This document shows, piece by piece, positions 1 to 12,453 of a stretch of DNA of 12,453 nucleotides. This stretch comes from a virus (Duplodnaviria; Heunggongvirae; Uroviricota; Caudoviricetes). The notes under the pieces were generated by a model, which did not search any database, was not told where the DNA came from, and saw only the letters and a program-made list of their open reading frames with translations. Position 1 is the stretch's first letter. Each line of letters starts with the position of its first letter. The translations under genes were made by a program, and so were the position numbers. Location of the stretch: the IMG/VR virus record IMGVR_UViG_2526164669_000031; one strand, given 5' to 3'.

Positions 1-1260
1 ATGAAGCTCAACGCCAGACAGGTCGAGACCGCAAAGCCAAAAGACAAAACCTACAAAATGGCCGATGGTGGTGGTTTGTATCTTGAGGTTTCGGCCAAAG
101 GTTCCAAATACTGGCGCATGAAATACAGACGTCCCTCTGACAAAAAAGAGGATCGTCTCGCCTTTGGTGTTTGGCCTACTGTGACGCTTGCTCAGGCAAG
201 AGCAAAACGCGATGAAGCTAAAAAGCTTTTAGTACAGGGCATAGACCCAAAAGTCGTACAAAAAGAAGCTCAGGCCGAGAATTCGGGGGCATATACTTTT
301 GAAACTATCGCCCGAGAATGGCATGCCAGTAACAAGCGCTGGAGTGAAGACCATCGAGCGCGCGTTCTTCGCTATCTTGAGCTTTATATCTTCCCTCATA
401 TCGGTTCGTCCGACATTCGGCAGCTTAAAACCAGCCACCTGTTAGCCCCGATTAAAAAAGTTGATGCCAGTGGCAAACACGATGTCGCTCAGCGCCTGCA
501 ACAGCGCGTCACAGCCATTATGCGTTATGCCGTACAGAACGATTACATCGACTCAAATCCAGCCAGCGATATGGCTGGTGCACTATCGACAACCAAAGCG
601 CGCCATTATCCTGCTTTACCTTCTAGCCGGTTCCCTGAGTTTCTTGCACGTCTTGCTGCATATCGTGGTCGCGTAATGACGCGGATTGCGGTTGAGCTTT
701 CCTTACTAACTTTTGTGCGTTCCAGTGAGTTACGTTTCGCGCGTTGGGATGAGTTTGATTTCGATAAATCTCTCTGGCGAGTACCTGCAAAACGAGAAGA
801 AATTAAAGGAGTGCGTTATTCGTACCGTGGCATGAAGATGAAAGAAGAGCATATCGTTCCGCTTAGTCGGCAAGCGATGATTTTGCTAAACCAGTTAAAG
901 CAGATTAGTGGTGATAAAGAACTGCTTTTTCCGGGGGATCATGACGCAACTAAGGTTATGAGTGAAAATACAGTAAATAGCGCATTGCGTGCGATGGGCT
1001 ATGACACGAAAACCGAAGTTTGCGGGCACGGGTTTAGAACGATGGCGCGTGGAGCATTAGGGGAATCAGGCTTATGGAGTGATGATGCGATTGAACGTCA
1101 GCTAAGTCACTCAGAACGTAATAATGTACGTGCTGCTTATATTCATACATCTGAGCATTTAGACGAAAGGCGTTTAATGATACAGTGGTGGGCAGATTAT
1201 TTAGATAGAAATAAGAAAGAAAGTATTACACCATATGATTTTGCTAGACAACTTAAATAG
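1..1260 (+). CDS. int: Tyrosine recombinase, P4-type integrase
   Basis: 419-aa ORF. The N-terminus (AKPKDKTYKMADGGGLYLEV...KYWRMKYR) is typical of P4-family integrase arm-binding domains. The C-terminus has HGFR and RAAYIH motifs consistent with the tyrosine recombinase catalytic H-x-x-R and Y. ATG at position 1, stop TAG at 1258-1260. Confidence 0.9.
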   Translation: MKLNARQVETAKPKDKTYKMADGGGLYLEVSAKGSKYWRMKYRRPSDKKEDRLAFGVWPTVTLAQARAKRDEAKKLLVQGIDPKVVQKEAQAENSGAYTFETIAREWHASNKRWSEDHRARVLRYLELYIFPHIGSSDIRQLKTSHLLAPIKKVDASGKHDVAQRLQQRVTAIMRYAVQNDYIDSNPASDMAGALSTTKARHYPALPSSRFPEFLARLAAYRGRVMTRIAVELSLLTFVRSSELRFARWDEFDFDKSLWRVPAKREEIKGVRYSYRGMKMKEEHIVPLSRQAMILLNQLKQISGDKELLFPGDHDATKVMSENTVNSALRAMGYDTKTEVCGHGFRTMARGALGESGLWSDDAIERQLSHSERNNVRAAYIHTSEHLDERRLMIQWWADYLDRNKKESITPYDFARQLK

Positions 1261-1266
1261 TATTTT

Positions 1267-1304
1267 AACCTAGCCAGAATTTTTGTAGTCTCGCTGGCTA
1301 GGTT
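1267..1304. terminator. Inverted repeat (11-bp arms AACCTAGCCAG / CTGGCTAGGTT, 16-nt loop) between convergent int and cargo genes; possible bidirectional terminator
   Basis: Arms at 1267-1277 and 1294-1304 are perfect reverse complements. It lies in the 54-bp gap between the int stop (1260) and the stop of the minus-strand gene (1315). There is no clean U-run on either side, so terminator function is uncertain. Confidence 0.35.
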
Positions 1305-1314
1305 AATTTAAAAG

Positions 1315-1899
1315 CTAATCATTCACATCAAGAGTTAAGAGTGCGTGCATTCTTTTAACAATCATAATGATATTCAAAATTAAATGTACGCAAACATATA
1401 TTATGAGTGGGCATAAAAAATAGTATAACACATTTAATTTTAGAGTTGTGTTTATTATGCTGACATAATATTCATGTGTTTTGCCGTAAAAGAATCCTGA
1501 TTGATTGACAGGAAACAGTGATACTATAAAACACAACACGACTAACAAAACTCCACATAAAATTGAATAACAAATGTTATAATAAAGTTCAGTGAGTAAT
1601 GCTTTCTTTGATTCATAGAATGTATCAATATCTTTTCTTTGTCTTATTTTTGATTCTTGATCATATACTAAAACAAGAACGCTAAGCAGTAATGCTGTTA
1701 GTATTGCACTGAAATTAACTAATAATGATATTAAATCTTTTGTTATACCACTTCCTAGGAGTGAGAATGCGGCAGAAATAATAAATGGTAGTATTATGAA
1801 TGTAAATATATCCCATAAACTGATCTTATTAGTGTCAGCATTTTTTAAAGTTCTGAAGTGGCCTATAAGAACTTCGCATATATTTATCTTTGAACTCAT
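1315..1899 (-). CDS. Hypothetical integral membrane protein (194 aa, about 4 predicted TM helices); second gene of the AT-rich cargo cassette
   Basis: Four hydrophobic segments of about 20-25 aa (approx. residues 28-50, 56-78, 105-128, 155-180) separated by charged loops. The ATG at 1899..1897 overlaps the upstream gene's stop as TAATG. An SD-like AAGGAGAG lies 5-6 nt upstream. Stop TAG at 1317..1315. Visibly AT-rich relative to the P4 backbone. Confidence 0.7.
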   Translation of the reverse strand: MSSKINICEVLIGHFRTLKNADTNKISLWDIFTFIILPFIISAAFSLLGSGITKDLISLLVNFSAILTALLLSVLVLVYDQESKIRQRKDIDTFYESKKALLTELYYNICYSILCGVLLVVLCFIVSLFPVNQSGFFYGKTHEYYVSIINTTLKLNVLYYFLCPLIIYVCVHLILNIIMIVKRMHALLTLDVND

Positions 1900-2825
1900 T
1901 ACGCTCTCCTTATAGTAACACCACGATATAACAACTGTATATATTCCATGATAATAACATCAACAAAATTATTTAGTGATGCTATTTCCGGCATGCCATC
2001 ATAAAAAACAACTTGTTCTTCATCAAATAAAATTTCACATACAGCTCCCCTTGCTGTTGTTCCAATATGAAAAGTTCTTTTTCTGCCATTATCTAATTCA
2101 ACAACTGTTTTTACTGTTTCTCCATATTCTTTAAGGACTTCAACGAGTTGATATTGCTCCGAGCCTCTGGAGAAATAGTCTCGAAGTCTTCCAAGTCCTG
2201 CATTTCGAGGCGGTTTGATAATTAATTCTTGCTCGTTATGGCCTAGCTTTTTGGCTTGTTCAGCTACATCTGTAATGCCATGGAATTTAGTTACCTTGAT
2301 TTCTTTGGTAATGGCATCCATCCATTTTTCAATCGCTTTATCATACGCCAGAGGGTTCATTTGAATCACTAAGTTGGTAATCCTCTTGAAATAATCTGAA
2401 AACAATCTCATAAAAAGAGTTTTTATACCATCACCTCTATAGGTATGTAAAAACGCCATGCCTTCATTTACATCTCTAGGAATATAAAAATGTATGTAAT
2501 ATCTAATTATTTCAGCATTGTTTTTTGTCTTTTCGAAGTCTACATCGCCAGTTTCAATGTTTATTATGTCGGTCTTTGTTCCGTAATATCCAGACTCGAA
2601 CCATCCATATATTTCTCGATTGTTGTTATCGCGTGTAATCTCATTAAAACGAAAAACTTGTTTGGTTTCTTCAGAAAGGATATATTCTTCATTATACTGC
2701 TTAATAAATTCATCGAGTATATCAAGTAAATCATGTTCTCTGATGTTACTCAGTGCTGAATAACGTTGTTCTTTGGCTGCGTTCGGATTGTAGCAGCGGA
2801 AAAGATACGGTGCTAAAGCGTGCAT
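1899..2825 (-). CDS. Hypothetical soluble protein (308 aa), first gene of the AT-rich cargo cassette; function unknown
   Basis: Long uninterrupted ORF in an AT-rich region where random ORFs are rare. Strong SD (AAGGAGAT) 5-6 nt upstream of the ATG at 2825. Translationally coupled to the downstream membrane-protein gene. I see no Walker A or other clear catalytic motif. Confidence 0.75.
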   Translation of the reverse strand: MHALAPYLFRCYNPNAAKEQRYSALSNIREHDLLDILDEFIKQYNEEYILSEETKQVFRFNEITRDNNNREIYGWFESGYYGTKTDIINIETGDVDFEKTKNNAEIIRYYIHFYIPRDVNEGMAFLHTYRGDGIKTLFMRLFSDYFKRITNLVIQMNPLAYDKAIEKWMDAITKEIKVTKFHGITDVAEQAKKLGHNEQELIIKPPRNAGLGRLRDYFSRGSEQYQLVEVLKEYGETVKTVVELDNGRKRTFHIGTTARGAVCEILFDEEQVVFYDGMPEIASLNNFVDVIIMEYIQLLYRGVTIRRA

Positions 2826-3059
2826 TGTTATCTCCTTTTTTAATGGAGATTAGCAACTTATCACTATAAGATCAACGAACGTTCAATATGGAAAGGGATA
2901 ATTCTGCTTGGTATTTTTCTTTTAATAATATTGGGGTGCTTTAGTGCGATATTTTGATGATTAGTGTGTGTTCGGCAGTAGAAGCTATCCATAGGCAGTG
3001 ATGTTTCTGCATATAGAATGTTTTAATTATCAAACACATAATTTTCGATTGCGCGCGCA

Positions 3060-3078
3060 GTGCTTTCCCCGCCTCGCC
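3060..3078. other. cos site: P2/P4-type 19-nt cohesive-end sequence
   Basis: GTGCTTTCCCCGCCTCGCC at 3060-3078 is the exact reverse complement of the P2/P4 cohesive end GGCGAGGCGGGGAAAGCAC as I recall it. It is followed by a GC-rich hairpin (CCGCCC...GGGCGG, 3078-3097) and a T-run. Confidence 0.7.
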
Positions 3079-3180
3079 CGCCCGCTTTGCAGGGCGGTTT
3101 TAATGCAGTTGCACAGTCACGCTCAGGCTGCGCCGGGAATGGCGCGGTCTGCAGAGAATGAGGCAGGAAAACGCATGCAA

Positions 3181-3213
3181 AGCCATGCACCTTATCGATG
3201 CATGGCTTTTTTC
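3181..3213 (+). terminator. Hairpin plus T-run (intrinsic-terminator-like) between cos and the 3' end of psu
   Basis: Arms AGCCATGCA (3181-3189) and TGCATGGCT (3199-3207) with a 9-nt loop, followed by TTTTTT on the plus strand. The orientation fits a plus-strand terminator better than a terminator for psu. Confidence 0.4.
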
Positions 3214-3242
3214 AGTAAAAACGGGCGGATTTTCGGGGAATT

Positions 3243-3815
3243 TTACACAGACTGACGTGATGCCAGTTGCGCACTTTTACGCGAAAAAATCATGTTCTGC
3301 GCAGGAGTGAATTTTTCACGGCTGTCATCCACCGAAGCCGCGTCAGGCCTGAATCCGATGGTCGTTAAAATGTCGCTATCCTGTGCGGAATAATTAATTT
3401 TTTCCCCCTTCGCAAGCCAGGACAGAAGGGCTTCACGCAGGGCATCTGTGGCACGCTGTATGGCACAGTTTCGGGCAATGGCCGTCAGCTCACTGTAGCC
3501 CATCAGCTCCGCTGCCAGTGCCGCCGCCAGTGCTGTGCCGTGCTGCTGCATAAAATCATTCAGCCGGTCGCGGATGCTGATGTGCTGAACGGCTTCATGC
3601 GAACGAATATAACGACCGGCGGCCTGATTCACCTGCCATTTTCTGACTTCGATAATATTGCGTAATTCGTCCAGGCGACTGACGTTTCTGCCTTCTCCTG
3701 ACAGAAGCCGCAGATATTCCTGTTCGGCCGCAGCCAGCTCATTTTTGCGTTGCAGCCATGCTGCTTTGTTATTCTGACAGGTGTCAAAGGCCTGCTGTAA
3801 GGCTGTGCTTTCCAT
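3243..3815 (-). CDS. psu: Psu (polarity suppression / capsid decoration protein), P4-like
   Basis: 190 aa, the length I recall for P4 Psu. Position is immediately downstream of delta in the sid-delta-psu operon. ATG at 3815..3813. Confidence 0.85.
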   Translation of the reverse strand: MESTALQQAFDTCQNNKAAWLQRKNELAAAEQEYLRLLSGEGRNVSRLDELRNIIEVRKWQVNQAAGRYIRSHEAVQHISIRDRLNDFMQQHGTALAAALAAELMGYSELTAIARNCAIQRATDALREALLSWLAKGEKINYSAQDSDILTTIGFRPDAASVDDSREKFTPAQNMIFSRKSAQLASRQSV

Positions 3816-3888
3816 CGTTATCTCTTTCTCATCATGCTGAAGAATAAAAATACGGTGTGTGGCGACGGCCGGTGTTAACCGGCAGCCC

Positions 3889-4389
3889 TCATTCCAGACG
3901 CAGCGAATATGATTGTGTTTTTAACCGTACTGGCGGCAGTTCCTGTTTTTCATGCAGGCGTTCTGCCAGTTCGTCCGGCGTGACCGGGCGGACAATGAAG
4001 CGGGTGATGGTCTGAAGCGTTTTAAACACCAGACCACAGCCCGGATCCGTGCACACATAAAAACGCTCGGTGACTTCCTGAGACAGACGCCGCGATGTTC
4101 TTGACAGTGCAAGGCCTTTACATCTCCGACAACAATATCCGGTAACAAGCATTCTTTTCGGCCGTTTCATACTGCCGGAGGCCGACGTCAGTGAATCGCG
4201 GTATCTCTGTTTGCCTGAAATGTATTCCATTCCTGAATCTTTACTGTCAGAGAAAAAGCTTTCACTCGCTTCAAATGTCGCAGAGCAATAAATATTCCGG
4301 CACTGTGCAATCATTATCTTGGTGCCATCGTCCATGAAATGTGCGCGACGGGTGTGAGCAACATGTCCACACGACGGGCAGTAAATCAT
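3889..4389 (-). CDS. delta: Delta, late-gene transcriptional activator (tandem Ogr-like zinc-finger domains)
   Basis: 166 aa. Two Cys4 zinc-finger modules are visible (CPSCG...CRNIYC and CCRRC...CTDPGCG). The ATG overlaps the sid stop as ATGA at 4386-4389. Confidence 0.9.
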   Translation of the reverse strand: MIYCPSCGHVAHTRRAHFMDDGTKIMIAQCRNIYCSATFEASESFFSDSKDSGMEYISGKQRYRDSLTSASGSMKRPKRMLVTGYCCRRCKGLALSRTSRRLSQEVTERFYVCTDPGCGLVFKTLQTITRFIVRPVTPDELAERLHEKQELPPVRLKTQSYSLRLE

Positions 4390-5120
4390 GACAGCAGTCC
4401 TCTGGCCTTAAGCTCTGCTCCCTGCTGGTCTATTTTGTCCTGCCACACCTTGCGCTGTGCCGGTGTGCCTGCCACCTCATAATCCATGTGCGGGAGTGTT
4501 GCCGCTGACAGTCCGGCCAGCCGGAGAACCGGCTCGCCGGTGAGGCTGATTTGCATCTGTTTAATTTTCTGTTCCAGCGATGATTTCACCTGCTGCATGA
4601 CAGCCTTATCGGGTGCGACGTAGCCCTGATGGCCGGTGGTGTTGGCGAGCGGATTTTCCTGTACCAGGATTCTCAGATGCATTGCCCGGACAAGCGCCTC
4701 ACAGGTTTCATTCAGGGCGTGTTCCAGCTCATGCTCTGCATACAGACTCAGAAGGTGATGATGTGCCTTCCGGTAGGCGGTGGCCGTGCTGTCACACGCC
4801 CCTTTCAGGCGTTCACGTTCGAAATTCAGCACCACGGCCAGATTGTCATATTCCTGTACCAGCTCCCGGCGTGCCACGCGCTCAATGTGGCGCTGTTTCA
4901 GCTCGTCGCTCAGGACACCACCGGCTGCACGAAAGGCCGTGCGCCAGTCGTCAGCGTCATTTCCGTCGGCCTGCGCCAGCGCATTTTTTTCCTGCTCTGC
5001 CCGTTCAATGGCCGTGACGGTCTCATCCATCAGGCGGGCGTTCTCAAGGTGGGCGGCTCTGGCCTTTTCCAGTTGTGCCAGTGCGGGTTGCAGATATTCA
5101 GGGATGGTGTTGTCAGACAT
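4386..5120 (-). CDS. sid: Sid (capsid size determination external scaffold), P4-like
   Basis: The track ORF 4386..5138 begins with a GTG. The in-frame ATG at 5120..5118 (MSDNTIPEYLQ...) gives 244 aa, the recalled P4 Sid length, and has a GAGGAG SD 7 nt upstream. The protein is coiled-coil rich and is the first gene downstream of the late-promoter motifs. Confidence 0.85.
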   Translation of the reverse strand: MSDNTIPEYLQPALAQLEKARAAHLENARLMDETVTAIERAEQEKNALAQADGNDADDWRTAFRAAGGVLSDELKQRHIERVARRELVQEYDNLAVVLNFERERLKGACDSTATAYRKAHHHLLSLYAEHELEHALNETCEALVRAMHLRILVQENPLANTTGHQGYVAPDKAVMQQVKSSLEQKIKQMQISLTGEPVLRLAGLSAATLPHMDYEVAGTPAQRKVWQDKIDQQGAELKARGLLS

Positions 5121-5154
5121 TTTCCGGCTCCTCGTCACTTCAGGTTAAGAAAAT

Positions 5155-5210
5155 TGTGACGTACACCGGACAACAACACGACGCATTGCAGATGTGCCAG
5201 CCCTGACACA
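5155..5210 (-). promoter_or_regulatory. Psid-like late promoter region with two TGT-N12-ACA activator (Delta/Ogr) sites
   Basis: Exact TGT-N12-ACA dyads at 5155-5172 and 5193-5210. Relative to a minus-strand start near 5146 they would be centred at about -18 and -55, the arrangement I recall for P4 late promoters. The sid ATG is at 5120. Confidence 0.6.
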
Positions 5211-5289
5211 GGAGACTCATCCTCAGACCGGCAAGCCAGGAAAAGGTCGCAGGAAAAACCGGCTTACTGTTTGTTTTTTTATGTTTTAC

Positions 5290-5393
5290 TGTTCACCTCT
5301 GTTCACCTTAATAAAAAAGATAAGTAATACAGTAAGTTAAAGGGTGAACAATCGCAGTAATGACTGTTCACCGTCTGTTCACCACTGTTCACC
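5290..5393. repeat. Iteron cluster (six copies of TGTTCACC/GGTGAACA); putative ori for the alpha protein
   Basis: TGTTCACC at 5290, 5300, 5365, 5376 and 5386, and inverted GGTGAACA at 5343. The same octamer recurs in the crr-like repeats downstream of alpha. The AT-rich tract 5400-5500 is adjacent. Confidence 0.7.
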
Positions 5394-5551
5394 CGTTGAT
5401 GGGCTTTTTATGCTGTTTATTACTGTTTATTTTTATTAATTAACTGAAATAAATAAGAAAAAACAATTTGCATTTCACTATAAAAAATTCCAGGTCCTTC
5501 AGAACCCTTTGAGACCCTTCCAGTCCGGATGGATAAAAAACACACAGCCAT

Positions 5552-5569
5552 TGTAAGGTTGCCGGAACA
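5552..5569 (+). promoter_or_regulatory. PLL-like late promoter activator site (TGT-N12-ACA) upstream of vis
   Basis: Exact TGT-N12-ACA at 5552-5569. It would be centred about 55 nt upstream of a plus-strand start near 5615, leaving a 57-nt leader to the vis ATG at 5672. Confidence 0.5.
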
Positions 5570-5671
5570 AATTCCCCCTGTTGCGTCTGCTGAAAATATT
5601 CACAAAATAAAGCGCTACCCGAAGCCGGACGGACTTATCCGGTGCTGTATGGACATTAACGAGGTAGCCCG

Positions 5672-5938
5672 ATGCAAGCTGTTTTTTCTTCCCCGTCTCC
5701 CGCCCCTGTTACGCCACTGATGCCGCTGCCGGACATCACGCAGGAGCGTTTTTTACGTCTGCCGGAAGTGATGCACCTGTGCGGCCTGTCACGCTCGACC
5801 ATCTATGAACTCATCCGTAAGGGGGAATTTCCGCCGCAGGTGAGTCTTGGCGGTAAAAATGTGGCCTGGCTGCACTCTGAAGTCACCGCATGGATGGCCG
5901 GACGCATTGCCGGACGCAAACGGGGGTACGACGCATGA
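5672..5938 (+). CDS. vis: AlpA/Vis-family small DNA-binding protein (excisionase-like late regulator)
   Basis: 88 aa. The C-terminal two-thirds ([47 protein letters not shown]) is a typical AlpA-family helix-turn-helix. GAGG SD 7 nt upstream of the ATG at 5672. An alternative in-frame start at 5720 would give 72 aa. Confidence 0.8.
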
Positions 5939-6066
5939 TGATGCCCGCTCTGCAAAAACGCCCTTTTTCTGGCTTGCCTTTTTCCGGCATTTGCGGATAT
6001 AGTTTTTCCGCTGCCGCAAAATCGGCAGCCGGGCGTGAGAACCCGTGTAACTCGAAGGCGACATAT

Positions 6067-6088
6067 GACGCGCCATGCGTCTTTTTTT
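6067..6088 (+). terminator. Intrinsic-terminator-like hairpin (GACGC-GCCAT-GCGTC followed by 7 T) in the immunity-like region
   Basis: 5-bp GC-rich stem at 6067-6071 / 6077-6081 with a 5-nt loop, then TTTTTTT at 6082-6088. It lies inside a long frame-1 ORF (5890-6525) of doubtful coding value. Confidence 0.4.
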
Positions 6089-6327
6089 GTGTCGCAATCA
6101 ACGCCACAGAGCGCCAGATTATGGTGTGGCGTGTGGTTTGCCGTGCAGGTATGATCCTGTTCGCAATCGCATGTTATGCCACTGAGTCAATGGTAGCTCA
6201 GGCGGGGCAGCCTCCGGGCTGGCCGGTATTCTTCGAGGCCGGTATTCTCACCCCCGTCTGGGCTATCGCCATCGAGCGTGAGAACTCCGGCGATAGCAGT
6301 TATTTGCTACTCGAAGGAGACTGCCTT

Positions 6328-6525
6328 ATGGCTACAACCCTTACCCCCTCACACCCTGAATTTGTCTTTGTGTTTGCGGCTGTCCGTCGCGCAGACCGTC
6401 ATCCCCGTATCTGTATGCTTCGCACCGTCGCCGGTGATGAACGCAGCGCCCGCCGTTCCCTTGTCCGTGACTATGTGCTCTCCCTTGCTGCCCGTCTGCC
6501 GGTGGTGGAGGTGTCCCGTGCGTAA
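6328..6525 (+). CDS. Hypothetical small protein (65 aa) immediately upstream of epsilon
   Basis: ATG at 6328 is preceded by a strong SD (AAGGAGA, 6314-6320). Its stop TAA at 6523-6525 overlaps the putative GTG start of the next gene. Confidence 0.35.
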
Positions 6526-6805
6526 TAAAAAAGCCCCTCAGACCGTCTCAGCGCGTCATGACGCCCGTGAACACCTCAGCATTGAGGCTTACCATAAGCT
6601 CAACCGCGCCAGCGCCGTATCCCGGTTTGTTGGGGGTGATTTGATTCACCGTGAACTCTCAGGCCTGCATCAGCTCTACATTCCGCATATTTTCAGCTAC
6701 CTGAATGAAGATATTGATTTTGTGCTGAATGAGCTGAAAGCCAAAGGCCTGTGCCGCGATTTTCTCGCCCAGCAGAAAGACCGGGGAGACAGGACGCATG
6801 TTTGA
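6518..6805 (+). CDS. Epsilon-like protein (candidate helper-prophage derepression factor), 95 aa from a GTG start
   Basis: GTG at 6518 with GGAGG 6 nt upstream gives 95 aa, the length I recall for P4 epsilon. The track ORF begins at an upstream GTG (6278) in the same frame. The stop overlaps the next gene's ATG (ATGTTTGA at 6798-6805). Confidence 0.5.
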
Positions 6806-7253
6806 TTTTCCCCAGCCCGGTGAGATTTACCGTTCTGCCGGTTTTCCCGATGTGGCCGTGGTCGGCATTCTGGAAGACGGTATTCCGTGGGAAATGCCGT
6901 ACCGCTGCCCGGACATTGTCTGGAACCCGTACCGCCGTAAATTCAGTATCCTTGTGCGTATCCTCGATGACGGGCGCACCACAGACATCCCGCTGGGGCG
7001 TTTTCTGCGGGAATTTACCTGTGACCGTCCTGACCTGTTTAAACGCAGCCCCGTAAACCGGCATGCGGTACTGAAAGAAATGGCCGGAGACCCGGAATTA
7101 CAGAAATGGCGGGAGAAATATCTGGATATTTACCCGCAGGACCCTGTTCCGGTCAGCCGGGCGGCACCGGTGGCGCGGGAATGGCGGGAAATTCCCCGCA
7201 CGGAGCCTGACCCGGAAATCACCCCGGATAACAGTTACCGCAATTATCTGTAA
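6798..7253 (+). CDS. Hypothetical protein, P4 orf151-like
   Basis: 151 aa, SD GGGGAGA upstream, translationally coupled to the upstream gene, and at the position of orf151 in the P4 left operon. Confidence 0.7.
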   Translation: MFDFPQPGEIYRSAGFPDVAVVGILEDGIPWEMPYRCPDIVWNPYRRKFSILVRILDDGRTTDIPLGRFLREFTCDRPDLFKRSPVNRHAVLKEMAGDPELQKWREKYLDIYPQDPVPVSRAAPVAREWREIPRTEPDPEITPDNSYRNYL

Positions 7254-7388
7254 TTAAAAAACGACACCCGAAAAATTAAATGTGCGTATTCGCGCAGGGA
7301 TACGCACGTCTTCAGGAGACGCAGATATGCCTTATCAGTTAATGCAACCGGCACGGAATGCAGTCATCTGTCACAGGGAGGAAAACAA

Positions 7389-7709
7389 ATGAAAACACCC
7401 TTACCGCCCGTCTTACGCGCTGCCCTTTACCGTCGCGCTGTCGCCTGTGCCTGGCTGACCGTGTGCGAACGTCAGCACCGCTACCCGCATCTCACCCTTG
7501 AGTCACTGGAGGCGGCCATCGCCGCTGAGCTGGAAGGCTTTTATCTGCGCCAGCACGGTGAGGAAAAAGGGCGTCAGATAGCCTGTGCCCTGCTGGAAGA
7601 TTTAATGGAATCCGGCCCCCTGAAGGCCGCGCCGTCGCTGTCCTTTCTCGGGCTGGTTGTGATGGATGAACTCTGTGCCCGTCACATAAAAGCGCCGGTA
7701 CTGCACTGA
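7389..7709 (+). CDS. Hypothetical protein, 106 aa (P4 orf106-like)
   Basis: ATG at 7389 with GGGAGG SD (7375-7380). Ends 15 nt before the alpha gene. Confidence 0.65.
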
Positions 7710-7723
7710 AGGAGAACAACACC

Positions 7724-10057
7724 ATGAAAATGAACGTAACTGCCACCGTCAGCCATGCGCTCGGCCACTGGCCGCGTATTCTCCCGTCGCTGGGGATTCA
7801 GGTGCTGAAGAACCGTCATCAGCCCTGTCCGGTCTGTGGCGGAAGTGACCGCTTCCGTTTTGATGACAGGGAGGGGCGCGGCACCTGGTACTGCAATCAG
7901 TGTGGTGCCGGTGACGGCCTGAAACTGGTTGAAAAGGTGTTTGGTGTTTCCCCGTCCGACGCGGCCGCAAAGGTGGCTGCCGTGACCGGCTGCCTGCCCC
8001 CGGCTGACCCGGCAGTGACGGCCGCCGCCGGTGCTGAAACAGAAGCCGCCCGGAAGAACGCCGCCGCACTGGCACAAACCCTGATGGCGAAAACCCGTCC
8101 CGGAACCGGTAACGCCTACCTGACCCGCAAGGGCTTTCCCGGCCGGGAATGCCGGATGCTGACCGGCACACACAGAGCCGGTGGCGTGAGCTGGCGCGCC
8201 GGTGACCTTGTGGTGCCACTGTATGACGACAGCGGCGAACTGGTTAACCTTCAGTTAATCAGTGCTGACGGCCGTAAGCGCACCCTGAAAGGCGGACAGG
8301 TCAGGGGCACCTGTCACACCCTTGAAGGACAGAATCAGGCCGGAAAACGTCTGTGGATAGCGGAGGGATATGCGACCGCACTTACCGTACATCACCTGAC
8401 CGGGGAAACGGTGATGGTGGCGCTTTCTTCCGTGAACCTCCTTTCTCTGGCCAGCCTTGCCCGGCAGAAGCACCCCGCCTGTCAGATTGTCCTTGCTGCT
8501 GACCGTGACCTCAGCGGTGACGGCCAGAAAAAAGCCGCCGCAGCCGCAGATGCGTGTGAAGGTGTTGTTGCCCTGCCACCGGTCTTCGGTGACTGGAATG
8601 ATGCCTTCACGCAGTACGGCGGGGAGGCCACCCGTAAGGCCATTTATGATGCCATCCGGCCACCGGCTGAAAGCCCGTTCGACACCATGAGCGAAGCGGA
8701 GTTTTCCGCCATGAGTACCAGCGAAAAGGCCATGCGTATCTATGAGCATTACGGCGAGGCGCTCGCGGTCGATGCCAACGGCCAGCTTCTGTCCCGCTAT
8801 GAAAATGGTGTCTGGAAGGTGCTGCCGCCACAGGACTTTGCCCGGGATGTGGCCGGGCTGTTTCAGCGGCTGCGTGCGCCGTTCTCCTCCGGGAAGGTGG
8901 CCTCCGTGGTGGACACCCTGAAGCTGATTATTCCGCAACAGGAAGCCCCCTCCCGCCGCCTGATTGGCTTTCGTAACGGCGTGCTCGACACGCAGAACGG
9001 TACGTTCCACCCGCACAGTCCGTCACACTGGATGCGCACCCTGTGCGATGTGGATTTCACCCCGCCGGTGGAAGGGGAAACGCTGGAAACCCACGCCCCC
9101 GCGTTCTGGCGCTGGCTTGACCGTGCTGCCGGTGGTCGTGCGGAAAAACGCGACGTGATTCTGGCCGCACTGTTTATGGTGCTGGCAAACCGCTACGACT
9201 GGCAGCTCTTTCTGGAGGTGACCGGTCCCGGCGGCAGCGGCAAAAGTATCATGGCCGAAATAGCCACCCTGCTGGCCGGGGAGGATAACGCCACGTCGGC
9301 CACCATCGAGACGCTGGAATCCCCGCGTGAACGTGCCGCGTTAACTGGCTTCTCACTGATACGCCTGCCGGACCAGGAAAAATGGAGCGGCGACGGTGCC
9401 GGACTCAAGGCCATCACCGGCGGCGATGCGGTGTCCGTTGACCCGAAATACCGGGATGCGTACTCCACGCACATCCCGGCGGTGATTCTGGCCGTGAACA
9501 ATAACCCGATGCGCTTCACCGACCGCAGCGGCGGCGTGTCACGCCGGCGGGTGATTATTCACTTCCCGGAACAGATAGCCCCGCAGGAGCGCGACCCGCA
9601 GCTTAAGGACAAAATCACCCGCGAGCTGGCGGTCATCGTGCGTCACCTGATGCAGAAATTCAGCGACCCGATGCTCGCCCGGTCACTGCTTCAGTCCCAG
9701 CAGAACTCAGACGAGGCACGGAACATCAAACGGGATGCCGACCCGACGTTTGATTTTATCGGCTATCTGGAAACCCTGCCGCAGACCAGCGGCATGTATA
9801 TGGGGAACGCCAGTATCATCCCGCGTAATTACCGTAAATACCTCTATCACGCCTATCTGGCCTACATGGAGGCAAACGGCTACCGGAATGTACTCAGTCT
9901 GAAAATGTTCGGGCTGGGGCTGCCGGTGATGCTGAAGGAATACGGACTGAATTACGAGAAGCGCCATACCAAACAGGGGATACAGACCAACCTGACGCTG
10001 AAAGAGGAAAGCTACGGCGACTGGCTGCCAAAATGTGACGACCCTGCAACAACCTGA
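7724..10057 (+). CDS. alpha: Alpha protein: primase-helicase with origin-binding domain
   Basis: 777 aa, the recalled length of P4 alpha. N-terminal zinc-binding primase motif (CPVCGGSDRFRFDDREGRGTWYCNQCGAG), a TOPRIM-like segment (IAEGYATAL...VLAADRD) and a Walker A motif (GPGGSGKS, nt about 9226-9249). SD GAAGGAGA at 7708-7715. Confidence 0.95.
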   Translation: MKMNVTATVSHALGHWPRILPSLGIQVLKNRHQPCPVCGGSDRFRFDDREGRGTWYCNQCGAGDGLKLVEKVFGVSPSDAAAKVAAVTGCLPPADPAVTAAAGAETEAARKNAAALAQTLMAKTRPGTGNAYLTRKGFPGRECRMLTGTHRAGGVSWRAGDLVVPLYDDSGELVNLQLISADGRKRTLKGGQVRGTCHTLEGQNQAGKRLWIAEGYATALTVHHLTGETVMVALSSVNLLSLASLARQKHPACQIVLAADRDLSGDGQKKAAAAADACEGVVALPPVFGDWNDAFTQYGGEATRKAIYDAIRPPAESPFDTMSEAEFSAMSTSEKAMRIYEHYGEALAVDANGQLLSRYENGVWKVLPPQDFARDVAGLFQRLRAPFSSGKVASVVDTLKLIIPQQEAPSRRLIGFRNGVLDTQNGTFHPHSPSHWMRTLCDVDFTPPVEGETLETHAPAFWRWLDRAAGGRAEKRDVILAALFMVLANRYDWQLFLEVTGPGGSGKSIMAEIATLLAGEDNATSATIETLESPRERAALTGFSLIRLPDQEKWSGDGAGLKAITGGDAVSVDPKYRDAYSTHIPAVILAVNNNPMRFTDRSGGVSRRRVIIHFPEQIAPQERDPQLKDKITRELAVIVRHLMQKFSDPMLARSLLQSQQNSDEARNIKRDADPTFDFIGYLETLPQTSGMYMGNASIIPRNYRKYLYHAYLAYMEANGYRNVLSLKMFGLGLPVMLKEYGLNYEKRHTKQGIQTNLTLKEESYGDWLPKCDDPATT

Positions 10058-10064
10058 CCCACCT

Positions 10065-10088
10065 GACCGGCATCTGCCGGTCTTTTTT
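10065..10088 (+). terminator. Rho-independent terminator of the alpha operon
   Basis: GACCGG-CATCTG-CCGGTC hairpin (10065-10082) followed by TTTTTT (10083-10088), 8 nt after the alpha stop. Confidence 0.7.
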
Positions 10089-10104
10089 ATCCCTGAATTC
10101 CCCG

Positions 10105-10406
10105 CAGGTGAACAATCCACTGTTCACCCTTCACCGTATATTCACCCGTTATCACACTGAAATTAAAAGAGAAAAATGAAAGGTGAACAGTGTGAACAAT
10201 CAAATCAAAAAAAACTTTTTTTCTCCCTGTGTGATTTTCAGTGCAGGGGACTAATCGCCGGTATGAGTCACACCGGCAGAATGCCGGAGGTGAAGAATCG
10301 AATGTTCACCCTTCACCCATTATTCACCACCTATCACTCTGAAATAAAAGGAGAAAACAGAAAGGTGAACAGTGTGAACAGTTCTTTCGAAAAAAAATTT
10401 TTTATG
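10105..10406. repeat. crr-like cis replication region: two direct repeats of about 120 bp, each carrying TGTTCACC-type iterons and ending in an A/T tract
   Basis: Repeat 1 is about 10105-10228 and repeat 2 about 10287-10406. They share GGTGAA..ATGTTCACCCTTCACC...GAAAGGTGAACAGTGTGAACA and a terminal A(7-8)T(6-8) tract. Iterons at 10107, 10121, 10182, 10303 and 10364, with TGTGAACA variants at 10191 and 10373. Confidence 0.75.
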
Positions 10407-10424
10407 TGGATAAAAGATGCACTG

Positions 10425-10451
10425 GTTTGGATCCGAGCTACGGATCCAAAC
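10425..10451. repeat. Perfect palindrome GTTTGGATCCG-AGCTA-CGGATCCAAAC (11-bp arms)
   Basis: Arms at 10425-10435 and 10441-10451 are exact reverse complements. No adjacent U-run. Located between crr and the attR-like sequence. Confidence 0.5.
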
Positions 10452-10594
10452 TTACTGATTAAAAATGATTTAACTTTCCGATTTATTGATGGGCTGAAAA
10501 TAGATTGGTCAGAAAAACAGTGGGGGCACAAAAGGGGGCATATTTCATTGTTGTGTTTTATTATTTGTTTTTTTATCATTAACTTATTTTGATG

Positions 10595-10634
10595 TTTGAG
10601 TCCGGCCTTCGCACCTTCGCACCTTCGCACCATC
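10595..10634 (+). other. attR-like remnant of a tRNA 3' end (T-arm and acceptor end) with a triplicated CCTTCGCAC 9-mer
   Basis: TTTGAGTCCGGCCTTCGCACC...CACCA resembles the T-arm and acceptor end of tRNA-Leu (leuX; recalled 3' end ...GTTCGAGTCCGGCCTTCGGCACCA), the known P4 target. CCTTCGCAC occurs three times in tandem (10606-10632). The sequence is in the same orientation as int. Confidence 0.55.
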
Positions 10635-10647
10635 GGAACATCAATAG

Positions 10648-10667
10648 ACGTCAACGGACGTTTTTTT
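10648..10667 (+). terminator. Small hairpin plus T7 run directly after the tRNA-like fragment (possible native tRNA terminator)
   Basis: ACGTC-AACG-GACGT (10648-10661) followed by TTTTTTT. The stem is only 5 bp. Confidence 0.35.
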
Positions 10668-10833
10668 ATGACTGAAATCCGCGCCACACAAGGCTTTTCG
10701 CTATTTTTCGCTCAACCTAAGTCAACCTACATCAACTTACTGATGTGGATACAGCTACAGCTGCGGCTATATCCCGATTCGATAATGTTTGTACCCACAC
10801 AAAACCCTTGAAAGGCTACAAGGCTGAAATTCT

Positions 10834-11019
10834 CTAAACCATAGAGATGATTTTTATGATCCAGTCTTTCTCTTGTTGAGATAGTTCCAGTTTGCTCACT
10901 CGTGTTAAGAAGGTATTGATCACCTGAACATCCGAATTGGTGAGCCTATTTAATAGAGTGGGTGGTATACCTTTACTAACTATTGCTTTGCGGTGACTTT
11001 CGTAGTTTTTATTACTCAT
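10834..11019 (-). CDS. Short ORF (61 aa) in the AT-rich chromosomal flank; possible gene fragment
   Basis: ORF only. It is in a different frame from the adjacent 77-aa ORF, so the pair may be a decayed gene. No recognisable motif. Confidence 0.2.
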   Translation of the reverse strand: MSNKNYESHRKAIVSKGIPPTLLNRLTNSDVQVINTFLTRVSKLELSQQEKDWIIKIISMV

Positions 11020-11084
11020 TGGTGATCCTCAAATATCATTGTATGGCGGCATTGATCGTTTCCAGCAACCTTTACTTACTCACT

Positions 11085-11318
11085 TCAAACTGCATCCTCG
11101 TAGACTGTTCCACTACAATAATCGAAAAGGCGTGGATGTCCATTCAGGTATCCCGCTAATACGTATAGCAATAACAATGGCTTATGCGGCGCGCGCTGTT
11201 CACCCTTGTGCCAGATTTTTATATTGGCAATTGCCTGCTGTAGCGATTTACTGGAAGCCATTGATATCCCTGGCAGTGAAATAATTGCGATCATGCTCGC
11301 AAATTTTCGGCTGTTCAA
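11085..11318 (-). CDS. Short ORF (77 aa) in the chromosomal flank; possible gene fragment or pseudogene
   Basis: ORF only. It sits downstream of and on the same strand as the nanS-like gene, in an AT-rich stretch. Confidence 0.25.
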   Translation of the reverse strand: MNSRKFASMIAIISLPGISMASSKSLQQAIANIKIWHKGEQRAPHKPLLLLYVLAGYLNGHPRLFDYCSGTVYEDAV

Positions 11319-11472
11319 GCCTGCAAGTGAAGATATATTACTTTGATCTCATTTGTTTTTTTGCTGCCTGTGTACCCTAATTGCCATGCGATGCTGCACC
11401 GACGCTAACCACCGTTTACGCCGGAGGAGTTAAAAGCGTTGATGGATGCGAATAAATCAAATTAATGAACGC

Positions 11473-12453
11473 TCACTTTTCGCCCCAAAACTGCAAAATT
11501 GCTTCTACAAACCTGTCAGAAATAATCCCCCGACGGGCTGCCGCGCTGAAATGACTGCTTCGCAGTGCCGTCGTCCAGTTCTCCGGTGACCGGTACGCTG
11601 AACCGTAATATCCCGTGCTTAAATCGTCCGGGTCTTCATCAGGCGCGTTCGTCAGTCCTCTTTCACCTTGTTGCTGGAAGTCGACGAAAATAATATTGGC
11701 TAAAACATTATTTTGATAATTGCCATAAATAACTTCATACGCATGAGGGAAATTTTCTTTCCAGTACCAGGTGGTATCGCCGCAAAACCACGGCGCGTCA
11801 GTAATATTATTAAGCTGAGAATGGTATTGTTTTAGATCCCTACGAAAGGCTTCAATCATATGATTAAAGTGTTGAGGGTGTGACGCGTAGTCACTGGTCA
11901 TTAAGTCAAATTCGCCTTGCATCCAGCATACGCCGAGGAATTTGTTCTGCGGATTTTTTGCCAGTGCGGCTCGCGTTCTGCTGACTAAATCCTGGTACAG
12001 CGGAGTATCCGTTCCCCAACGACAAGCATCATGGCTGGCTCCGTGCCGTTCTGAATATGTCCCTTCGCTGCCCGCGGTAAAAGCCGATCCGCCACGGCAA
12101 CATGGAACGATGAGAACCCCTGCATTATCAGGAATAAAGGGTAGTAATTTCCGTGCAATATGCAGTGCCTGGCCAACGGTGCCGTACTGTGTTTGATGAT
12201 TCGTTGCCAGAGGATGGTGATAACCCTGCATATCCTGAACATCGTGTGGGCAGTGAGTCAGTGGAATAATGTCGTTAAAGTGACATGACGGGCCTCCGGG
12301 ATGCGTATGCGCAAATCTCGCTAATTGTTTAATTCTGGGATGAGGCGCATCTTCCCTGTCCGGTAATGGCAGTCCTTCGCCATACGCCATGGCATTAGAC
12401 TGACCAGCAACGGTAAGAACATAGTAATAATCGGGCGATATTATTGCGTTCAT
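11473..12453 (-). CDS. nanS: Sialate O-acetylesterase (SGNH/SASA-family), NanS-like; the start codon is at the window edge
   Basis: 326 aa. An N-terminal GQSN(A)MAYGEG motif is characteristic of SGNH/SASA esterases. Length and sequence are consistent with E. coli NanS (YjhS) as I recall it. ATG at 12453..12451. Confidence 0.7.
   Translation of the reverse strand: MNAIISPDYYYVLTVAGQSNAMAYGEGLPLPDREDAPHPRIKQLARFAHTHPGGPSCHFNDIIPLTHCPHDVQDMQGYHHPLATNHQTQYGTVGQALHIARKLLPFIPDNAGVLIVPCCRGGSAFTAGSEGTYSERHGASHDACRWGTDTPLYQDLVSRTRAALAKNPQNKFLGVCWMQGEFDLMTSDYASHPQHFNHMIEAFRRDLKQYHSQLNNITDAPWFCGDTTWYWKENFPHAYEVIYGNYQNNVLANIIFVDFQQQGERGLTNAPDEDPDDLSTGYYGSAYRSPENWTTALRSSHFSAAARRGIISDRFVEAILQFWGEK

Follow-up and report, generated by a model that had tools for sequence, protein, structure and literature searches.

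Introduction

P4-like satellites are mobilised by P2-like helper phages, and the steps by which they are excised, replicated and packaged belong to established P2/P4 biology. The classical attachment site of P4 is leuX. Packaging needs a cos site, yet a cos site is not sufficient for it. In P4 itself, cos is located between psu and gop.

A defence hotspot of P4-like satellites, lying between psu/cos and int, was described by Rousset et al. 2022 (Cell Host Microbe; PMC9122126), and Figure 1A of that work shows a conserved-to-variable transition in the cos-proximal sequence. The position of the hotspot beside cos is restated by de Sousa & Rocha 2021 (PMC8628076) and in a 2026 NAR survey. A complete “Type A” P4-like satellite is composed of int, psu, delta, sid, alpA/vis, epsilon and alpha (de Sousa & Rocha 2021, PMC8628076). 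The small capsid holds about 12 kb (Rousset et al., PMC9122126), and P4 cosmids of 5–10 kb are packaged efficiently. Here, we discuss a cos site which adjoins a two-gene cassette in an element of this kind.

The satellite element and its gene content

The window, i.e., the whole stretch of 12,453 nucleotides that was analysed, is 100% identical to a sequence of E. coli OkiPb01675 (NZ_AP042478.1; bovine faeces, Okinawa). Megablast against phage records aligned P4 with 97% identity across 70% of the window; P4 bases 4079–11624 correspond to window positions 10615–3079 at 97.5% identity, and P4 bases 2708–3914 align with positions 1207–1. Int, Vis, Epsilon, ORF151, ORF106, Alpha, Sid, Delta and Psu are present at full length with 97–100% identity to their P4 counterparts (tblastn, with Pfam support), and all seven “Type A” core components are found. 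The only P4 proteins that have no counterpart in the window are Gop, Beta and CII, and in place of gop-beta-cII there is a two-gene cassette of low GC content. The backbone comprises the following features (positions refer to the window):

1–1260, plus strand: P4-type integrase (Pfam Arm-DNA-bind_3, Phage_int_M and Phage_integrase; 97% identity to P4 Int, residues 5–414)
3243–3815, minus strand: psu, capsid decoration and Rho antagonist (Pfam Psu, E = 9e-87; 98.9% identity to P4 Psu, full length)
3889–4389, minus strand: delta, transactivator of helper late genes (Pfam Ogr_Delta; 98.2% identity to P4 Delta, full length)
4386–5120, minus strand: sid, capsid size determination (98.4% identity to P4 Sid, residues 1–244)
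5280–5403, no strand assigned: ori type-1 iterons (P4 contexts; five of six exact, the sixth with one mismatch)
5672–5938, plus strand: vis/alpA, excisionase and regulator (98.9% identity to P4 ORF88)
5997–6273, plus strand: immunity region with c4-a1b1 targets, isrK and C4/CI antisense RNA (three full-length Rfam matches above the gathering score)
6518–6805, plus strand: epsilon, helper derepression (100% identity to P4 Epsilon)
7724–10057, plus strand: alpha, primase-helicase (98.7% identity to P4 Alpha, 777 aa)
10102–10403, no strand assigned: crr, a pair of 120-bp direct repeats on which replication depends in cis (located by BLAST in the block of 97.5% identity)

An earlier note on this DNA had described sid, delta, psu, vis and alpha as intact and both replication elements as present; the full-length matches at 97–100% amino acid identity bear out the former and the iterons together with the two crr repeats the latter. 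The Psid region, too, is identical to that of P4.

The similarity of the integrase gene to P4 stops short of its end. P4 DNA homology ends at position 1207, within int, and the last ~17 codons (1207–1260) differ; thus, the int-side edge of the hotspot lies within coding sequence. The window Int has 419 residues versus 439 translated from the P4 record, where it is annotated as AA 1–440. The same int 3′ end, at 79% DNA identity, is found with a related cassette from Salmonella.

Two further deviations from P4 lie in regulatory DNA. The overlapping P4 “cI ORF137” (window 6118–6522) has only 83% amino acid identity to P4 versus 97–100% elsewhere, and C4/CI RNA, isrK and the a1b1 targets are full-length Rfam matches despite this divergence; the divergent immunity region possibly reflects a distinct immunity specificity. 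The three “ori type 2” repeats of P4 (CCACTTAAAG-like; P4 9176–9205) are replaced at about 5475–5530 by GGACTGGAAG, GGTCTCAAAG and GGTTCTGAAG, which recur with a periodicity of ~10 bp, and this change could alter the specificity of regulator binding near PLL.

The cohesive end and the conserved cos core

The window contains a single copy of the 19-mer GGCGAGGCGGGGAAAGCAC, on the minus strand at 3060–3078 and with no mismatch, while none of 200 dinucleotide-preserving shuffles contains it even when three mismatches are tolerated. The same letters form bases 1–19 of NC_001609, the linear P4 record with the virion cohesive ends as its termini, and they are present in a P2 record as well. The earlier note had placed the exact reverse complement of the P2/P4 cohesive end between the cargo genes and psu; both the sequence it relied on and its placement proved correct, and a chance match was ruled out by the shuffles. 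On one side of the site are the cargo open reading frames (1315–2825, minus strand), on the other is psu (3243–3815, minus strand). The features of this region are:

3060–3078, minus strand: 19-nt cohesive end, the 5′ overhang of P2-type terminase (exact match to P4 and P2)
3053–3113, minus strand: 61-bp conserved cos core, −35 to +25 from the first overhang base (conservation profile of 152 loci)
3079–3242, minus strand: satellite-specific spacer between psu and cos (collinear in pairwise alignment with the P4 right end)

Within the spacer, a hairpin lies 3′ of psu (~3181–3212), and positions 3079–3100 form a GC-rich inverted repeat with a T-run that adjoins the cohesive end and is kept in all P2/P4-type cos sites.

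The limits of the core were derived from 152 other, independent loci that carry the 19-mer, collected from IMG/VR viral contigs and from GTDB contigs with one genome per species. The loci were oriented and split into satellites, which have a psu homologue nearby (n = 30, including P4 and the window), and the rest (n = 123), which are mostly P2-like helpers; the per-position statistics are based on the 152 loci and exclude the window. In satellites and helpers alike, conservation amounts to at least ~90% at about −35 to −1 and at +19 to +25. The window equals the consensus wherever conservation reaches at least 90% and departs from it only in the naturally variable stretch from −13 to −10, where its T at −13 recurs in 16 other loci, 12 of them helper-type. 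Alignments with P2-like phage genomes span exactly 3053–3113 at 88–95% identity, and 134 of 156 alignments to other cos-bearing loci stop precisely at 3053. Alignment to the cos regions of P4 and P2, which the earlier note had proposed as a check, returns the same 19-mer and the shared core 3053–3113. The 61 bp include the “55-bp core” that is credited to Ziermann & Calendar 1990 in passages of PMC5694545 and PMC2231350.

Judged from its sequence, the stretch 3053–3113 is very probably a cos of the functional type, belonging to an intact P4-like satellite prophage of 10,780 bp at leuX.

The junction of cos with the variable region

The two flanks of the core differ in their relation to P4. Towards psu, the window remains collinear with the P4 right end as far as that gene; on the cargo side, similarity to P4 is gone 7–8 nt past the overhang, and P4 homology is absent from 1207 to 3052. 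The satellite class shows the same edge: conservation is at least 93% at +25 and at most 69% from +26 onwards, while on the psu side it stays at or above 90% at most positions as far as −100 in the 30 satellites. The asymmetry of conservation in helpers is opposite to that in satellites. Given the drop at +25/+26, the accessory region of satellites begins directly after the core.

In the window, this region opens with an AT-rich leader:

2826–3052, minus strand: variable leader from the cos core to the first cargo gene, without P4 homology

The description of cos as sitting directly next to the cargo therefore holds for the variable DNA, which follows the core immediately from 3052, but not for the genes, the first of which has its start codon at 2825, at a distance of 227 nt. 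The homology shared with the Salmonella cassette ends at 2875, and the leader is unrelated even to the Salmonella version. Presumably, it holds the promoter of the cargo genes. A promoter scan of 2826–3052 on the cargo (minus) strand returned no promoter-like site, with a total count not above that of shuffles; promoter-like sites were scored on the plus strand at 2992–3019 and on the minus strand at 2816–2787, just within cargo gene 1. Among 5,426 complete genomes, the cassette is carried by only 7, while the cos stretch is carried by 2,112.

Beyond marking the limit of purifying selection, the sharp break at +25/+26 could be read as the footprint of cassette exchange from terminase-cut cos ends, which would point to occasional transfer of cargo between helpers and satellites through cos. 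This reading draws on the occurrence of the RexAB-like cassette family (see below) on the hotspot side of cos in a P2-like prophage of Rahnella as well as in P4-like satellites of E. coli and Salmonella; we consider it improbable. That cos ends promote cassette exchange is offered by Rousset et al. (PMC9122126) as speculation only, and a 2026 survey reported helper–satellite cargo transfer to be almost absent.

The cargo gene pair

The cassette consists of two genes that overlap by one base:

1899–2825, minus strand: cargo gene 1, a 308-aa soluble protein (WP_000543069), “RexA-like” by description
1315–1899, minus strand: cargo gene 2, a 194-aa multi-pass membrane protein (WP_000095574), “RexB-like” by description (from its translation)

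Their GC content is 26–39%, rising to ~44% at the cos-proximal edge, versus ~50% for the backbone. Neither protein has a match in Pfam, PADLOC or NCBIfam, and a sequence-profile search of the PDB found nothing; in PHROGs, only 15676 and 15250 were hit, both of which are families of unknown function. The 308-aa protein belongs to a compact, unannotated gammaproteobacterial family.

The pair is kept together in four other genera, namely Pseudomonas, Vibrio, Salmonella and Rahnella. In a Salmonella P4-like hotspot, it occupies positions 5097–6601 of the extracted locus with cos at 4870–4888 (87% amino acid identity); in a P2-like prophage of Rahnella victoriana, it lies at 6001–7508, between gpA and cos/portal, with cos at 10206–10224 (76% amino acid identity). 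The cohesive ends of the Rahnella and Salmonella loci are variants, GGCGTGGCGGGGATAGCAT and GGCGTGGCGGGGAGAGCAT, respectively. Since the hotspot is of the P2 type (helper-type element) in Rahnella and of the P4 type (satellite-type element) in Salmonella, the side of cos on which the cassette family is found differs between the two. In V. cholerae, the pair (5001–6498 of its locus) stands beside a Zot/GPA filamentous-phage module, and in Pseudomonas (5001–6466) beside a prophage integrase. As an accessory module of temperate elements, the gene pair has travelled widely.

The pair WP_000543069 and WP_000095574 is listed in Table S1A of Rousset et al. 2022 (PMC9122126), and Table S1B contains the identical sequences as system #36, “RexA | RexB”, with 46 loci and the remark “4 TM in protein 2”; the system is absent from the tables of cloned and tested systems in that work. 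The cargo is a putative anti-phage system. Its likeness to RexAB, the abortive-infection system of phage lambda, lies in the succession of a gene for a soluble sensor and a gene for a small multi-pass membrane protein, with lambda RexB measuring 144 aa versus 194 aa for the membrane partner in the window. Homology to RexA was considered but not confirmed: Pfam RexA (PF15969) matched neither the window protein nor any of 36 family members even at E ≤ 1 (HMMER), Foldseek against the PDB returned nothing significant, and hhalign against a profile of 24 RexA family sequences gave a probability of 4%, confined to a local “IKPxxxR” stretch. The RexAB label is, therefore, kept as an analogy and as the annotation of Rousset et al., not as a statement of family membership.

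Attachment sites and integration context

The element resides at tRNA-Leu (leuX). A canonical 20-bp attL core precedes the window start by 183 nt, and the element spans 10,780 bp between attL and attR. The right attachment site lies within the window:

10598–10640, plus strand: attR, with the first 14 of 20 core nucleotides intact, followed by a 1-nt deletion and a tandem expansion of the 8-mer TTCGCACC

It reads GAGTCCGGCCTTCG-CACC-TTCGCACC-TTCGCACCA, the canonical form being GAGTCCGGCCTTCGGCACCA. Compared with the canonical core, one G is lost and the 8-mer is expanded (reference: the natural sequence downstream of leuX); the repeat is scored by TRF with period 8 and 3.8 copies at 10606–10635, and attR differs from attL at positions 15–20 of the 20-bp core. 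On the excised circle, the predicted attP junction would be …TTTGATGTTT-GAGTCCGGCCTTCGGCACCA-TTAGTACTTCC….

The same degenerate attR borders an unrelated island of the YeeU/CbtA type in strain 2014C-4135 and is carried by many genomes; shared in this way, it looks like an old boundary of leuX islands that has been reused by successive elements. The satellite recurs in strain H2 with cargo and cos flanks unchanged; there, it ends in a canonical attR, which is followed by a different, integrase-bearing island, so that the element occurs in more than one right-flank context. All seven cassette-bearing copies are located at leuX. In the siblings from 13E0767 and OkiPb01716, an IS21-family insertion brings the distance between attL and attR to 13,373 bp, which the small capsid imposed by Sid can probably not accommodate; no such insertion is present in the window copy.

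The inserted IS21-family element (ISEc12) is situated between orf106 and alpha (18538–20840 of the locus from NZ_CP020107; also in NZ_AP042701). Beyond attR, positions 10640–12453 hold remnants of an older leuX island, in which pseudogene pieces derive from an HNH endonuclease, from a restriction endonuclease of the phosphorothioate-dependent kind and from a nanS-like, truncated sialate O-acetylesterase; nanM and nanC come next.

Alternative readings of the locus

The GC-rich inverted repeat and T-run at 3078–3105 might chiefly act as an intrinsic terminator that separates transcription of the psu operon from that of the cargo/int side, in which case the match to cos would be incidental. A terminator scan does flag 3078–3097 on the plus strand, with six G-C pairs followed by TTTTAATGCA. 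The variation seen in nature argues against a role of this kind as the main one, in that a C:A combination at −18/−1 is found in 49 of 131 distinct sequences and an A:G combination at −16/−3 in 46 of them, in neither case with a compensating change; the predicted fold is no more stable than that of shuffles (z = −0.83), and the inverted repeat is kept jointly with the 19-mer in helpers and satellites regardless of the flanking genes. By the same data, a conserved hairpin structure of cos was ruled out as well, so that what is conserved in the repeat beside the nick site is sequence and not structure. A terminator role may coexist with cos function rather than replace it, and as the chief explanation of these bases it is extremely improbable.

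A weightier objection concerns the element as a whole, which could be a stranded, domesticated defence island whose cos is intact only because it is young, whose degenerate attR blocks excision, and whose cargo spreads vertically or by homologous recombination in the flanks. The deletion and 8-mer expansion in attR fit this picture, as does the recurrence of this attR at an unrelated island and in many genomes, which marks it as an old chromosomal scar; the invariable location of the seven cassette-bearing copies at leuX and the siblings above small-capsid size can be counted on the same side. Impaired excision would follow if P4 Int exchanged strands at core positions 15–20, where attR is altered. 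What speaks for excision is that the 14 intact core nucleotides cover the T-loop and T-stem portion of the tRNA, where strand exchange would be expected; in elements that target tRNA genes, the rest of the identity block rebuilds the tRNA 3′ end and does not take part in recombination. A crossover within these 14 nucleotides would restore a canonical attP. Moreover, the absence of inactivating mutations from core genes at 97–100% identity argues against long-term decay, and strain H2 has the same element with a canonical attR. On balance, we regard the stranded island as unlikely and prefer the reading of 3053–3113 as the cos of an intact satellite prophage.

Predicted packaging and mobilisation

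With 10,780 bp, the element is smaller than the ~12 kb which the small capsid holds, and the genome of OkiPb01675 matches the P2 large-terminase gene P at two additional places and contains one additional cos core; the gene P counts stem from a chimeric query, in which the cargo was joined to a segment of that gene and which yields places per genome only. In view of its size, the terminase genes in the host and the second cos core, the element looks packaging-competent, and the corresponding claim of the earlier note is supported as far as DNA sequence can carry it. Three of the seven cassette-bearing complete genomes have no match to a P2-type terminase, and these are also without an extra cos core.

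For the OkiPb01675 copy, we infer a course of excision, cleavage and packaging along the lines known from P4. Upon derepression, Int and Vis would excise the element, which Alpha would replicate as a circle from ori and crr. Epsilon and Delta would activate the late genes of a P2-like helper, and Sid would impose small capsids. The helper terminase would then bind the cos core on a circular monomer and nick it 19 nt apart, releasing a linear cos-to-cos molecule. The conserved recognition sequence is asymmetric, extending over 35 bp on the psu (right-end) side and only 7 bp past the overhang on the other; owing to this asymmetry, DNA up to +26 could be replaced with cos unharmed, and it is at +26 that the accessory-gene hotspot begins. 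In the packaged molecule, the cargo would lie at the left end, and every transducing particle would carry it.

The locus is, hence, best described as a complete and apparently transmissible P4-like satellite and not as a decayed island, a description whose value lies mainly in annotation. Being apparently transmissible, such a satellite could plausibly move its RexAB-like cargo among E. coli strains in P2-derived particles.

Comparison with known systems

The closest relative of the site is the cos of P4 (NC_001609/X51522), with which it shares an identical 19-nt overhang directly downstream of psu and a right-end flank that is collinear up to psu at ~96% identity. Within the first 60 nt of this flank, P4 and the window differ by four or five substitutions, one of them C to T at −13. 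At +19, the T of the window agrees with the family consensus, whereas P4 has C, and beyond +25 the window is unrelated to the gop leader of P4.

With P2-like helpers (Peduoviridae), the window has in common the 19-mer and the 61-bp core, at the identity of 88–95% given above for 3053–3113. In these phages, it is at the right end, beyond −35, that conservation is poor and the hotspot is found, and the portal gene follows at the left end, whereas the arrangement in satellites is the reverse.

In its entire architecture, the locus corresponds to the P4 defence hotspot as described by Rousset et al. (PMC9122126): a conserved backbone holds a foreign, variable cassette in the interval from cos/psu to int, and nothing structural differs. 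A cos site beside a cargo cassette is, thus, the standard layout of these satellites, published in 2022 with the present cassette itself catalogued, and is already known. Some mild interest attaches to the RexAB-like cargo, to its presence in cos-proximal hotspots of both the P2 type and the P4 type, and to the degenerate attR.
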